64,000 nt of DNA from Thermoproteota archaeon (lineage in GTDB: Archaea > Thermoproteota > Thermoprotei > Thermofilales > B9-G17), in NCBI GenBank assembly GCA_029258885.1, contig JAPDJW010000002.1, positions 1 to 64,000 of the forward strand, given 5' to 3'. The position numbers and the translations under genes are program-made. Each line of letters starts with the position of its first letter. The stretch's first letter is position 1. Positions 33,900 through 40,075 of this stretch are shown here, in pieces. The notes below the pieces were generated by a model. That model did not search any database, had not been told where the DNA came from, and saw only the letters and a list, made by a program, of their open reading frames with translations.

Positions 33900-34047
33900 A
33901 CCGCTAGAATTGATAACTCTAGCAATTAATTTGCTTTACCTCACTTAAACGTATACAACAAAGACTATTCGTTTATTTGGGATATTTTGGGAACGCTATA
34001 TTTATATTTCTCTTTTTGTTTGGATGCTTGGTGCTATCAGGCTTACG

Positions 34048-34219
34048 CCGATGACGGCTTACCCCGTAACCCGCACCCAGTGGTGTGCGGGAATGTAGCT
34101 CCCAATGAACCATCGAAAAAGGTGAAGTGGATGAGGAAGAAGCCCGTGCCAGCCATCAAAATATCGAAAATACCCAAAAGATAATGCACAGGCAACCACG
34201 TGTGTTACCAGTACCAGAG
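34048..34219 (+). ncRNA. Stand-alone IS200/IS605 TnpB omega-RNA (right-end RNA) homolog with flanking putative guide
   Basis: 34065-34199 aligns without gaps to the reverse complement of 36565-36699 at 106/135 identity; both end GGCAACCAC and then diverge. Confidence 0.75.
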
Positions 34220-35242: not shown

Positions 35243-36109
35243 ATGGTTTCTGAGATTGATTTAAGCTATATTTTTCAGGCTTTATCGCATGAGACTAGAA
35301 GGAAGATGATTAAGATTTTGGCTGAGAGGGGGTCTTTATCGTTTAGTGAGCTTATGGAGCTGGCTGGTATCGAGGAGACGGGTACTTTTGGCTTTCATAT
35401 GAGGAGGATTGAGGATTTAGTTGAGAAGCTTGATGATGGAAGGTATAGACTCTCGGATTTAGGTAGGCTTGCCTATAGCATTATATGTTTTGCTGAAGGT
35501 AAGGGAGATATTGTACCGTCTCGCCCCGTTAAAGGGGAGGTTAAGGTGTTTAACTATATATCTAAGGTTGTTGTTGATAGAAGTTTGCTGGAGAAGTACA
35601 GTAAGGTTGGCTTCGACTATATTGGTAAGGTCGTATTCACGGAGGATGTCGATGAGGAGCTATTCAGGGATAAGGTTCTCTTCTTTAAGGGAGTTGGGAA
35701 AATTGTTGTCCCTAAGCACTTGGTTAGGTTAGCTTACAGCCTACTGGATGAATACTGTGGCAGCGTTATCGGATATGAGGATAAGGTTCCGAAGCGGTGG
35801 CTTGAGGAGAAGAGAGGGGTCAGGGAACTGGTTAACTACGGTGAAATGGTAATTACCAGGAGAAGGCTTGAGAAGGCAGTTGAGGAAGGCTATATGCTTA
35901 GAATAGAAAACCATGGCACGCTCATCATAGAGGAGGACGTCAATCCCGAGCTATTCGAAAGAGCAGTATTTTCGATAGATTCACGTGGAGAAATATATGC
36001 CGCCAGTAAGCTACATAGGATAATCTCGGATAAGATAGAGAGTATAAGCGGAGGAGTAAGGGATCTAGCAGAGCTTACTGAGAAGGGTGCTTCACTTCAA
36101 CATGCTTAG
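35243..36109 (+). CDS. ArsR-family winged-helix protein with unknown C-terminal domain
   Basis: FQALSHETRRKMIKILAE..LSFSELME..FGFHMRRI HTH. Confidence 0.82.
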   Translation: MVSEIDLSYIFQALSHETRRKMIKILAERGSLSFSELMELAGIEETGTFGFHMRRIEDLVEKLDDGRYRLSDLGRLAYSIICFAEGKGDIVPSRPVKGEVKVFNYISKVVVDRSLLEKYSKVGFDYIGKVVFTEDVDEELFRDKVLFFKGVGKIVVPKHLVRLAYSLLDEYCGSVIGYEDKVPKRWLEEKRGVRELVNYGEMVITRRRLEKAVEEGYMLRIENHGTLIIEEDVNPELFERAVFSIDSRGEIYAASKLHRIISDKIESISGGVRDLAELTEKGASLQHA

Positions 36110-36564
36110 CAGTTTACGTAGCTCGTTAATCTTAGCTTTTACGGCCTCCTCTGTCTTGAATTCATGCTCTATTCTATCTAGTAGCTTGCTTATTTTTACT
36201 TTTAAATCTCCTCCAGCTAGCTCCTCCACTCTTTTCCAGTCGATTGAATAGTAGTGCATGATCATTAGTTTAAGGGCGTCCTCTAAATCTTTGATGGAGG
36301 ATAGTATTAATACTTTAGCAACTATGTTCTCTTCCAGAGGAGTTATTTTAACGTCCTGACATTTTACGTGAACTGTAATGCTGCGCTTAAGCGACTCCTC
36401 GTCTAAATATGTTCTTGGATACTTGAAGTCAAGCCTATATCCATCTACGATAACGGTGAAGTGTCCTCCATTCCTATATGCTGCAAGTGCTTCATTGGGA
36501 TTTATATCGAAGTTCTCCCTTTTAAGCTCCTCTACAAGCCTATATATCGATTGTAGGCTATCTG
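36092..36564 (-). pseudogene. 3' part of a nucleotidyltransferase-like (AbiEii/DUF6036-like) gene interrupted by the IS element
   Basis: Open frame from the IS right end to TGA: ..GYRLDFKYP..TPLEENIVAKVL..KDLEDALKL; no start codon outside the IS. Confidence 0.6.
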
Positions 36565-37836
36565 GTGGTTGCCCGTGCTTTATATTTTGGAAATTATGAG
36601 TATTTCAGGAATTTGCACGGGCTTCTCCCTCAGCCACCTCATCTGGCTCGGTGGTTCATTGGAAGCTACATCCCCGCACACCACTAGGTGCAGGTTACGA
36701 TGGATTAGGCATATTCTCCCGCTCCTGATGGCTACTTTGCCGTCATTGGAGCGGGAGAAGAGGTTAAGACAAGCAACATACTGAGCGTTAAATGTAAAAC
36801 CACATCTCCTACATCTAAATGTCTCTTTATCAACTCTATTCCTCTTATCCATGTAACCGCATATTGGGCATGTGATGGAGGTTTTCCTAGCATTAACCTC
36901 CAGTACACTCAAGCCTCGTTCATAGAATTTATAGTCAATGTACTCTATGAACCTACGGTATGGGAAGGTGGATAACCTGTAGTTCAGTTGCTTACTCTTC
37001 TTCCTACCATTAAGCCTTAAGTCCTTGAGGTTCTCTCTGATTAAGTCAGCCTCATATTCCTTGGCAGTCTCTGCTAGTAACGTAGTTATCTTCTTTAACC
37101 TATCCTCTACACGCTTCCTCTCACGACGACCATACTTAGCTAGGAGCTTATCGCGTACTCTTGGGTTCTTCACTTTCTCTTGTATGCTCTTCCTGATTCT
37201 CCTGTAGTTAGTACGTATTTTCCTGATATCGTGCCTTATTGAGAACAGTACAGCTTCATTCCTATTGTAATTAACTAGTAGGCAGTCAATACTATCCTCA
37301 TTAATATCTATGAAAAGCTTATTCTCATGCTCACCAACCTCAACGTTCTTACGTATGGTTAGGAGTAAGTAGATACTGTTACCATCAACTAGCATCTTGG
37401 AGTTGCCTAGCTTAGCTCCTTCAAGCTCTCTCCTAGCGTAATCGTACTTCATCACTAGGAATCTTAAGTAGACACCATTACCTTTAGATACCGTCAGTAC
37501 TGAGAAGCCGTGCCTTCTCTCAAGCTTGTAGGTATCAACGTGGAGTTCAACGACTTTATTATCCTCTACTGTAGGTAGTGATGGCGGCGATATTCTCTTC
37601 CTCTTCTTCTCCGGTAACCGCTTCCACCTGTTCAGTAGCTTCCTGTAGCTACGGTACATTGCTAACGCCCTCTTATATGCTTCCTGAACAAACTTATTGT
37701 GTAGGTGAGGATACCTTTCTCTCAATACTCTATAGCATAGCTCGTGTGCTTTCTTCCTACTGCAAACATTATTTTTAACAATGATTTTTAGAGCATCCCT
37801 TATCATTGCTGTATAGTCGTTTAGAAGAGAGAACAA
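36565..37836 (-). mobile_element. IS200/IS605-family element remnant (tnpB plus right end; no tnpA or left end)
   Basis: tnpB ORF plus right end GCACGGGCAACCAC shared with the second copy at 34186-34199. Confidence 0.8.
36580..37836 (-). CDS. tnpB: TnpB RNA-guided endonuclease homolog; RuvC-III Asp replaced by Gln; probably N-terminally truncated
   Basis: RuvC-I FIDIN, RuvC-II RENL, Zn finger CPICG/CRRCG, RuvC-III NAQYVACLNL; only a TTG start is available. Confidence 0.88.
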   Translation of the reverse strand: MFSLLNDYTAMIRDALKIIVKNNVCSRKKAHELCYRVLRERYPHLHNKFVQEAYKRALAMYRSYRKLLNRWKRLPEKKRKRISPPSLPTVEDNKVVELHVDTYKLERRHGFSVLTVSKGNGVYLRFLVMKYDYARRELEGAKLGNSKMLVDGNSIYLLLTIRKNVEVGEHENKLFIDINEDSIDCLLVNYNRNEAVLFSIRHDIRKIRTNYRRIRKSIQEKVKNPRVRDKLLAKYGRRERKRVEDRLKKITTLLAETAKEYEADLIRENLKDLRLNGRKKSKQLNYRLSTFPYRRFIEYIDYKFYERGLSVLEVNARKTSITCPICGYMDKRNRVDKETFRCRRCGFTFNAQYVACLNLFSRSNDGKVAIRSGRICLIHRNLHLVVCGDVASNEPPSQMRWLREKPVQIPEILIISKI

Positions 37837-37837
37837 C

Positions 37838-38212
37838 TGGTTATATAGGGAATATATTGCCTTAAGGAAATATGCTGAAAAATATGGAATTAGCTTTGCA
37901 ACATGTAAGGAGGGTTTCTTCAGCCTTCATACGGCTCCGGACTGCTGTGGCATGTTTTTCCTCGAAGACTATGTGCTAAGACCTACTCTTTATGAGGCGT
38001 GGCTTATGTATAGGCGGGATCGACGGGTTCCATCGATCGATGAATTACTTTCCGAATATTGTACCCAAGGAAATTACATCTGTAGTATTAGATTAGTCGA
38101 CTACCCGAGGGTAATTAGGAAGGGTATTAGAAATCACGAAAAAATGTTGGGGAAAGTGTTATGTAATAGAGAGCTTTTAGGGAAGGTAGCTTTTGAATTC
38201 ACCTATGTTTAG
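37838..38212 (+). pseudogene. C-terminal remnant of a radical-SAM (SPL-like) protein
   Basis: Open frame WLYREYIALRKYAEKYGISFATCKEGFFSLHTAPDCCG..; the 5' part is missing and abuts tnpB back-to-back. Confidence 0.6.
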
Positions 38213-38544: not shown

Positions 38545-38973
38545 TCACAATTTGTGACTCCTAATTCGACTCAAGTCGTTATCCCATGTGCATAGCTTGT
38601 ATCTGAGCCTTAATATGGGATCCTTATCCACTAGAACTAGACCTTCCTTGAATATCCTAATTCTAATCCAGTCGCGGGCGAAACGTATATCGACAAAATC
38701 TATAGGGAAACCTATATTCCTTTCAAGCTTCTCGGCTAAATCGCTCAGATAATTATACGATTCTATTATGTCAGCTATCTTATTATCTAGAATTACCGCT
38801 ATATCTATATCCCTGAAAGGCCTATCCTTAAGGAATCCTCCGAAAAGTATTGCACATACAATGTTATCATCCTTAAGTAGTAGTTCCCTAATTAAATCTA
38901 CGACCTTCTCCTTTTCGCCGGGACTTAAAGTGTAAAATCTCAGTTTAGAACTATCCTTTATGCTTGGCTGCAT
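38545..38973 (-). CDS. Minimal nucleotidyltransferase (MNT antitoxin)
   Basis: LFGGFLKDRPFRDIDIAV motif; start MQPSIK overlaps the HEPN stop. Confidence 0.85.
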   Translation of the reverse strand: MQPSIKDSSKLRFYTLSPGEKEKVVDLIRELLLKDDNIVCAILFGGFLKDRPFRDIDIAVILDNKIADIIESYNYLSDLAEKLERNIGFPIDFVDIRFARDWIRIRIFKEGLVLVDKDPILRLRYKLCTWDNDLSRIRSHKL

Positions 38974-39382
38974 ATTTAATAACCTCATCGATAAACGTTT
39001 TAATAGAGCCGATACCACTTTCCCTCGCATTCTTATATATTAAGGAATCATCTACCTCCCAGTACCTATGTACGACTAGATTCCTTAAACCCACAAGTTT
39101 TATCATATTATTAGCGGTATTCTCATCTATAACATTTAGTCTCGCTAATTCCCTAAAAACATCCTTATATGCCTCCGGTGCTTCATTGAATACCTCCTCC
39201 AAAATATGTATGCCCATAAGTGTACAGGCTTCCACCACCTGTACTATTGCATACCTCACTGCAAATACTATCTTGAAATCGTTTAGGAATAGATTTAATG
39301 GTCTAGAAGTAGCATCCTCAATTACCTTAAGCGCTACCTCCGCTTCACGCCTTAATCTATTTAATCGCCTAAAGTCTAACAT
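38951..39382 (-). CDS. HEPN-domain RNase toxin (DUF86/HepT-like)
   Basis: GLRNLVVHRYW R-x4-H motif. Confidence 0.88.
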   Translation of the reverse strand: MLDFRRLNRLRREAEVALKVIEDATSRPLNLFLNDFKIVFAVRYAIVQVVEACTLMGIHILEEVFNEAPEAYKDVFRELARLNVIDENTANNMIKLVGLRNLVVHRYWEVDDSLIYKNARESGIGSIKTFIDEVIKYAAKHKG

Positions 39383-39487: not shown

Positions 39488-40075
39488 ATGGGAGATATAA
39501 TCAATGTTCTAGTTAACATTGCTAGGGAGACACAGGGTATTAAGTGGATTCTAGTCGGTAGTACGGCGAGCTATTTAAACGGCGTGGACGTTAGGCCTAA
39601 GGATATCGATATTTTATCCGATAGAGATGGCGCAATTGCCCTTGGAAGGTATTTATCCGCAAAGTACGAAGTTGTTAAGCCCATGACGTATAGCACTTCA
39701 GAAGTATATGAGAGCTACTTTGGAATATATAAAATAGGTGCCGTAAAAGTGGAGGTTATGGGCAACCTGGTAATTAAGGGTAGGTATGGAAGATTCTCGG
39801 TACCCTTTGATGAAATGCTACGCTTTTCTAGGGAGATTATATTAAAAGGGGTAGTTGTTCGACTAGTTCCGCTCGAGTGGCAGCTTGTAGCAAACCTCTA
39901 CATTCCAGGTAAGGAGAAGCGTGTGGACAGGATACTTGATGCTCTAGTAAGAAATGGTATAGATATTGAAGCGTTAAGATACATATTAAAGTATTGTAGC
40001 AAGGGAGTCGCTACAGTGGTTAATAGACTGCTGAAATCTAGAGGAGTAGAAGTCCAGTTAAATTACTTTATGTGA
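39488..40075 (+). CDS. Nucleotidyltransferase-family protein
   Basis: WILVGSTAS..GVDVRPKDIDIL motif. Confidence 0.8.
   Translation: MGDIINVLVNIARETQGIKWILVGSTASYLNGVDVRPKDIDILSDRDGAIALGRYLSAKYEVVKPMTYSTSEVYESYFGIYKIGAVKVEVMGNLVIKGRYGRFSVPFDEMLRFSREIILKGVVVRLVPLEWQLVANLYIPGKEKRVDRILDALVRNGIDIEALRYILKYCSKGVATVVNRLLKSRGVEVQLNYFM

Follow-up and report, generated by a model that had tools for sequence, protein, structure and literature searches.

A truncated archaeal tnpB with a RuvC-III glutamine: very probable remnant of a decaying IS607-type insertion sequence

The truncated tnpB locus

The DNA studied here is a 64,000-nt window of contig JAPDJW010000002.1 (GCA_029258885.1) from a hydrothermal-vent Thermoproteota archaeon, and the subject of this report is a tnpB gene in that window that has lost its 5' end and encodes a glutamine at the position of the third catalytic aspartate of the RuvC nuclease site. 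An earlier note on this DNA had proposed that the gene might represent a domesticated or clade-wide system of nuclease-dead TnpB, comparable to the RNA-guided TldR repressors of bacteria. We examined the gene together with its relatives, the insertion sequence (IS) to which it belongs, the omegaRNA that overlaps its 3' end and the DNA that flanks the element. Residue numbers, here and below, refer to the full-length protein, and the features of the gene itself are as follows.

36580-37842, minus strand: 5'-truncated tnpB; homology to full-length tnpB begins at the deletion junction at 37842, at about residue 23 of 442
37306-37308, minus strand: RuvC-I Asp in FIDINED (codon GAT; D201), invariant in 113 clade members
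37033-37035, minus strand: RuvC-II Glu in IRENL (codon GAG; E292), invariant in 113 clade members
36781-36783, minus strand: Gln in place of the catalytic Asp of RuvC-III (codon CAG; Q376)
36565-36747, minus strand: omegaRNA scaffold and right end of the IS, overlapping the last ~165 nt of tnpB and finishing GCACGGGCAACCAC at 36565
37835-37842, unstranded: deletion junction, an 8-bp block overlap or microhomology, AACCAGTT
37843-38212, plus strand: 3' remnant of a radical-SAM gene, cut by the same 2,269-bp deletion

The tnpB open reading frame (ORF; 36580-37836, minus strand) starts with a TTG at 37836 and encodes 418 aa with no break in the frame. The product scores 111 bits against NCBIfam guided_TnpB (NF040570; cut-off 100) and 60.5 bits against Pfam Cas12f1-like_TNB (PF07282), and it retains both CxxC pairs of a complete C4 zinc finger. 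An AlphaFold2 model of the full-length protein (pLDDT 88.7) finds its best Foldseek matches among Cas12f and TnpB structures, with a TM score of 0.63 for AsCas12f, and these matches, together with the profile scores, indicate the TnpB/Cas12f fold and the WED-REC-RuvC-TNB architecture. In phmmer alignments, the segment FNAQYVACLNL stands opposite naDfnAsqNi and naDynAarNi of solved Cas12f chains and the Gln therefore occupies the canonical position of the RuvC-III Asp. Its CAG codon is two changes away from GAY, and the triad reads D201-E292-Q376 instead of the D-E-D that is canonical for TnpB. All that the earlier note had observed in the gene was borne out by these results: the intact RuvC-I and RuvC-II motifs, CxxC pairs and unbroken frame are all present in the 418-aa ORF, and the alignment to Cas12f agrees with its placement of the Gln at RuvC-III, two substitutions from an Asp codon. 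Its N-terminal truncation affecting the first strand of the WED domain is real, as homology starts near residue 23 and the lost codons encode that strand, and its two omegaRNA loci with different guides were recovered as right ends at 36565-36747 (minus strand) and ~34030-34199 (plus strand).

The missing 5' end of the gene is explained by comparison with the closest relatives, which lie at the orthologous site and comprise the loci L004 and L005 (99% protein identity) and L006 (91% protein and 96% DNA identity). Full-length relatives are 442-444 aa long and begin with M-x-IKTIEKTIKLKLIPLT, and homology of the window protein begins at NQLFSLL. Alignment of the window with L004 gives two blocks and skips L004 3750-6018, a stretch of 2,269 bp that contains the 5' part of the radical-SAM gene, three small ORFs, the IS's left end and tnpA, as well as the GAGGTG ribosome-binding site, which is conserved, and the first ~22 codons of tnpB, which encode the long first WED beta-strand (residues 2-16 in the AlphaFold2 model). 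In metagenome run X1, a 1,117-nt unitig covers 36748-37864 across the junction with zero mismatches; it reaches just 22 nt past the microhomology, and X1 is perhaps the source sample, in which case its support is not independent. The undeleted continuation is found in X1 as well (depth ~6, versus ~22 for the deleted form) and in X2 and X4, vent or sediment metagenomes in which the undeleted continuation alone was seen. The deletion is recent and still polymorphic. Over the remaining tnpB, the window differs from L004 at 11 synonymous and three non-synonymous codons, which are too few for a test of relaxed selection.

Having lost its left end and tnpA along with the start region of tnpB and the first ~22 codons, the window copy is, on its sequence, unable to move. 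A protein initiated at an internal TTG or ATG, if made at all, would probably be misfolded. At the same site, L006 carries a tnpA split by a frameshift, and the insertion is decaying in several lineages.

The TnpB family and its transposon

A word-indexed search yielded 183 proteins; identity to the window TnpB is 59-99% among the 120 listed, whose named sources lie in the Thermoprotei, Desulfurococcales and related metagenome-assembled genomes (MAGs). Nearly all of these listed relatives carry NAQY at RuvC-III, a few carry NVQY or NTQF, and the most distant carry NSHY. Across 113 aligned members, position 376 is Gln in 104, His in nine and Asp in none. D201, E292, the TNB arginine R358 and N382 are invariant in the same set, and conservation reaches at least 99% at S344, N357 and the four cysteines of the zinc finger; all of these residues fall among just 38 of the 442 positions that are at least 99% conserved. 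An exhaustive search of cluster representatives found Q or H in relatives above ~40% identity, and mostly Asp (as DRD or NAD), plus DRH and DRQ groups, in more distant representatives. On a FastTree phylogeny of 101 representatives, built with the trait columns left out and carrying SH-like support only, the clade of the window holds seven representatives that all have Q or H (support 100), a second H/Q clade stands separately, and well-supported branches force at least five changes from D to H or Q. These distributions indicate that Gln, in some members His, is the fixed and ancestral state of the whole family, with no lesion specific to the window copy, and that the RuvC-III Asp has been substituted branch-wide with RuvC-I and RuvC-II retained. 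The limitation of the position to an interconverting Gln/His pair is unlike the free drift that would follow inactivation.

Relatives of the window gene belong to a transposon. In L004-L006, a 205-aa gene with HTH_17 and Resolvase domains ends directly at the start of tnpB, and tblastn located a serine-recombinase tnpA immediately upstream of tnpB in all 12 loci that have upstream DNA. Ends defined from 11 loci are sharp and read GACTATTC ... GGCAACCAC, with flanks that differ between non-orthologous loci: the left end starts with GACTATTC at ~85 nt ahead of tnpA, sequence further upstream being unrelated between loci, and the aligned right ends are identical through GCACGGGCAACCAC and then unrelated, orthologous loci excepted. 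The left junction reads GAC and the right end finishes CCAC, which suggests AC as the core. The family's ends lack the GG core dinucleotide of most described IS607 members, and a search of the left flanks for a target-adjacent motif (TAM) found no consensus upstream of the conserved GAC, which may itself represent TAM plus core. The element has the defined ends, the scarless joint and the absence of a target-site duplication that characterize IS607 transposition.

Several observations document the spread of the element. A 2,045-bp copy in L010:3300-5344 is 99.0% identical to one in L011:1566-3610, at different sites and with different flanks, and two MAGs carry two family copies or fragments each. 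The family is present in five of 41 genomes of the window's order, with one copy each, spread over three families. We conclude that the family is a mobile IS607-type transposon with a serine-recombinase TnpA, which the window copy lacks through deletion. The source MAGs of L010 and L011 are labelled differently, one as a Thermoprotei archaeon and the other as 'Nitrososphaerota archaeon', and the near-identity of the two copies reflects either a very recent transfer or transposition or a problem of binning or labelling.

The start of tnpB shows an additional peculiarity. In seven of 11 loci (L004:5940-5975, L006, L008, L010-L012 and L014), none of the codons ATG, GTG or TTG stands in the full-length tnpB frame at the position of the Met in relatives; here, where the tnpA stop overlaps the tnpB start, the frame reads AAG ACG or ACG ACG, 7-9 nt after the conserved GAGGTG motif, which resembles a Shine-Dalgarno sequence. 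Near-cognate initiation (at ACG or ATT), coupling to tnpA or repeated decay may account for the missing start codon. Gene callers begin these start-less genes at an internal TTG ('LTKNDR...').

Pairwise Nei-Gojobori estimates across the 11 loci gave a median dN/dS of 0.087 at a dS of 1.3 for the body of tnpB, which points to strong purifying selection. In the last ~50 codons, where the omegaRNA overlaps, dS falls to 0.47. RNAalifold applied to 12 right ends predicted 38 pairs, nine of them with compensatory double changes that cluster in a 7-bp hairpin; most copies have ACCGCC/GGCGGT in this hairpin, and the two window copies have CCTGCAC/GTGCGGG. The stretch 36600-36700 (minus strand) is dual-coding, with the DNA of the omegaRNA stems also encoding the C-terminal beta-meander of TnpB (residues ~390-414), and the covariation of these stems accounts for the C-terminal tail RNLHLVVCGDV in the window protein as compared with RKTAQVVAVNV in relatives. 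A GUGGU hairpin loop and the 3' terminal ACCAC of the omegaRNA are both invariant; they fit a pseudoknot, for which invariance gives no covariation signal. An Rfam scan of the window returned tRNA-His only, with no described family covering the tnpB omegaRNA. The covariation, the lowered dS and the shared right terminus point to a structured omegaRNA that lies over the tnpB 3' end, ends at the right end of the element and is followed by a variable guide.

The window contains two such right ends, the second of them without a tnpB, and the features that bear on their guides are the following.

36545-36564, minus strand: flank equivalent to the guide of the tnpB-linked right end, beginning CAGATAGCCTACAATCGA, inside the nucleotidyltransferase-like host gene split by the element
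36092-36564, minus strand: 3' part of the disrupted nucleotidyltransferase-like (NTase-like) host gene, with open frames of 203-237 aa in its intact homologues
~34030-34199, plus strand: solo right end, left by a second copy and resembling an omegaRNA, with ~80% identity to the 3' end of tnpB
34200-34217, plus strand: flank of the solo right end, beginning GTGTGTTACCAGTACCAG

When the left and right flanks of L004 are joined, they form an NTase-like ORF of ~203 aa for which four genomes of the order carry intact, colinear homologues, and the alignment is gapless when one AC is kept as the shared core. The guide beside tnpB consequently lies within a host gene split by the element. The solo right end has the same stem variant as the tnpB-linked one and no tnpB body upstream, and L006 shares this right end in the same place, at least across window positions 34101-34199, where the L006 record ends. 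Both window right ends finish GCAC(G/A)GGCAACCAC, beyond which their sequences are unrelated, and the 2.1-Mb genome holds only these two. Neither guide has a second match in this genome at two or fewer mismatches; the next best matches have three mismatches, equal to reversed-pattern controls. The guides are the DNA that flanks the right ends, and they provide no pointer to a host promoter target.

Some further observations concern the surroundings of the element and other TnpB proteins. A HepT-like gene and a nucleotidyltransferase (Pol-beta/MNT) gene, a pair of toxin-antitoxin type, adjoin the deletion at 38545-39382 (minus strand), and more NTase-like genes lie at 39488-40075 (plus strand); together with the NTase-like gene split by the IS, they make the neighbourhood rich in NTase-fold genes. 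The only other TnpB of the genome, at G000:C2:438298-439467 on the minus strand (L002:1471-2742), has 423 aa and is 27% identical to the window protein. It carries the canonical RuvC-III Asp (WHRDVVACWNI), D-x-N-E at RuvC-I and a degenerate zinc finger (CPIHKC followed by one further Cys only), and there is no tnpA among the surrounding ORFs of at least 150 aa. Two family ORFs are longer than the rest: P0092 (516 aa) has a C-terminal part of TnpA fused in frame ahead of TnpB, and P0023 (537 aa) has a match to a PIN domain (PF01850) beside the TnpB domain. These two ORFs may be frameshift artefacts or real fusions.

Comparison with described TnpB systems

Six large TnpB branches with altered RuvC-III have been described, of which Ser-6 and RIIIr-6 occur almost only in archaea, and the conserved substitutions in such branches have been argued to mean a rearranged but still active site (Altae-Tran et al. 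2023, PNAS, PMC10691335). The window family resembles these RIIIr-# and rearranged Ser-# branches in its branch-wide non-Asp residue at RuvC-III with the RuvC-I Asp and RuvC-II Glu kept, in its archaeal distribution and in its association with a serine recombinase, and its sequence features fit the archaeal, serine-recombinase-linked branches of that survey. The main text of that paper names only an Asp-to-His change, in RIIIr-4, which is without the zinc finger, whereas the window family mostly has Gln and an intact C4 zinc finger. We found no report of a bench test of the RuvC-III-altered branches, and the published surveys assume that they cut.

IS607 elements with an active TnpB, such as the Clostridium botulinum IStron (bioRxiv 10.1101/2023.11.20.567912) and the source of ISFba1 TnpB (PDB 8iaz), share with the window family the order of tnpA followed by tnpB, an omegaRNA that lies over the tnpB 3' end and stops at the right end, a guide from the right flank and a short core common to both junctions, which is AC here. 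They differ in that the tested IS607 TnpBs have the canonical D-E-D triad with ends and TAMs of the GG type (PMC13565253), whereas this family has D-E-Q/H, a CCAC end and a GAC left junction.

Very probably, the locus derives from an IS607-type IS of ~2.04 kb that encoded a serine-recombinase TnpA followed by TnpB and whose omegaRNA lay across the 3' end of tnpB. This element had inserted into the NTase-like host gene, and the later 2,269-bp deletion through microhomology left its right-hand two thirds. In intact copies, TnpA would excise and integrate the element as in other IS607 members, and the TnpB-omegaRNA complex would recognize the rejoined, emptied donor site by means of the right-flank guide beside the TAM at the left junction. 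The difference between GAC at the left junction and CCAC at the scaffold end would permit self-avoidance, a parallel to TGGG versus TCGG in the C. botulinum element. The D-E-Q/H pocket of the RuvC site, although non-canonical, would be functionally constrained.

Decay of the locus and chemistry of the altered pocket

Taken together, the results make it very probable that the locus is a decaying IS607 copy with a clade-wide Gln and with no domestication. Certain features do weigh against this reading: the ORF is still open and its coding sequence is without visible decay, for which the deletion is too recent to be informative, and CTATATAA, a sequence resembling a TATA box, closely precedes the new 5' end of tnpB, from which a shortened TnpB may be fortuitously expressed. 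The earlier note favored a host-domesticated, TldR-like repressor that uses the linked guide together with the solo guide 2.4 kb away, and the open frame, the single copy in the genome, the absence of tnpA, the two nearby scaffolds with different guides and the retention of the insertion at the same site in related strains could all be read in that way. However, tnpA is absent only through a recent and polymorphic deletion that also took the 5' end of tnpB, close relatives at the same site retain tnpA, and the guides match their own flanks only, one of them lying in the gene that the element disrupted, with no second target for either. TldRs as described by Wiegand et al. (PMC10705468) do resemble the window protein in their TnpB fold, in their linkage to a guide RNA and in an altered RuvC residue, but they are bacterial, reside in a fixed non-transposon context beside a partner gene and target a host promoter. 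Those authors required that fewer than two triad residues be conserved in a TldR, the zinc finger and the RuvC C-terminus often being lost as well, and left out single-residue cases as often spurious calls (PMC10705468); here a single triad residue has changed, and the other two are conserved together with the complete zinc finger. The family is linked to tnpA, has differing flanks and a patchy spread, and occurs as 99%-identical copies at different sites. As to the checks suggested in the earlier note, conserved flanks in homologues were not observed between non-orthologous loci, the association with tnpA was present wherever upstream DNA was available, and the neutral decay of homologues that it had named as part of a refutation is contradicted by the low dN/dS. 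Its caveat that NAQY may be a trait of a mobile archaeal clade was well founded, and of its proposal of a 'domesticated or clade-wide' system, the clade-wide substitution stands and the domestication of this locus does not; we consider such domestication highly improbable. Hardly more credible is the suggestion that the deletion and truncation are an assembly artefact and that the organism carries the full element. The assembly is of metagenome type, and the same sample, X1, also contains the undeleted form, but the mismatch-free unitig crosses the junction at a depth of 22, compared with 6.3 for the undeleted branch, and the clean 8-bp microhomology is typical of a real deletion.

The chemistry of the family is a separate question, on which we are considerably less certain. 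Our assessment, only slightly better than even, is that the D-E-Q/H pocket may still cut nucleic acid, perhaps with an altered metal or substrate preference, because only Gln or His occurs at the position, the pocket is otherwise invariant, as is the TNB arginine, dN/dS is ~0.09 and the published reading of such sites is one of retained activity (PMC10691335). An alternative that we regard as unlikely, but of real weight, is that the whole Gln/His family is unable to cleave DNA and is kept by selection in active IS607 elements for RNA-guided binding only, where it might mark or protect the donor joint, steer TnpA, or only process or hold its RNA; this would concern the chemistry of the family and is compatible with decay of the window locus. 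None of the 113 members has the RuvC-III Asp, and most have no Asp at -2 either (NAQ, NVQ, NSH). No relocated acidic residue that could sustain catalysis was demonstrable when E204 and D389 were considered: E204, in the D-x-N-E motif, is 98% conserved yet present in Asp-type relatives too, and D389 is 99% conserved but follows the 12-residue RuvC-III helix in the order of secondary structure, and it probably lies at the far end of that helix in the model. A pocket of two carboxylates is unusual for two-metal chemistry. In tested TnpBs, mutation of any DED residue abolished activity (PMC10705468), and Cas12m2 (type V-M), which has a non-canonical HDD triad, binds one Mg2+ and the non-target strand and holds DNA tightly without cleavage (PMC10442227). 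The latter is a mechanistic analogy only, since Cas12m2 is CRISPR-associated, much larger and substituted at RuvC-I and RuvC-II. These points favor binding and weigh against retained cleavage. On the other side, drift would be expected after a loss of function, yet the position is held to the Gln/His pair; we know of no described benefit to a transposon of a dead TnpB. The invariance of D201, E292, R358 and N382, the 99% conservation of S344 and N357 and an intact TNB zinc finger set the family apart from TldRs, in which such features tend to be lost, and Altae-Tran et al. take such conserved substitutions as rearranged active sites (PMC10691335). A more specific version, in which non-cleaving Gln/His TnpBs are retained by selection in currently mobile transposons because they do something for IS607 elements that needs no nuclease, for instance marking the donor joint under RNA guidance or directing the serine recombinase, appears more doubtful still.

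The locus itself is of little weight, as it represents a dying insertion sequence, and the question of cleavage hardly matters for the window copy. It does illustrate that the change of a single RuvC-III residue is, alone, insufficient ground for calling the domestication of a TnpB. The family to which it belongs is a compact (~2.04 kb) and evidently mobile TnpB-omegaRNA system of thermophiles, with the third catalytic position kept as Gln or His by strong purifying selection, and it bears on whether 'rearranged' RuvC-III sites cut DNA. If a nuclease-independent role were true, the family would provide a natural, transposon-borne 'dCas12-like' binder in hyperthermophilic archaea.

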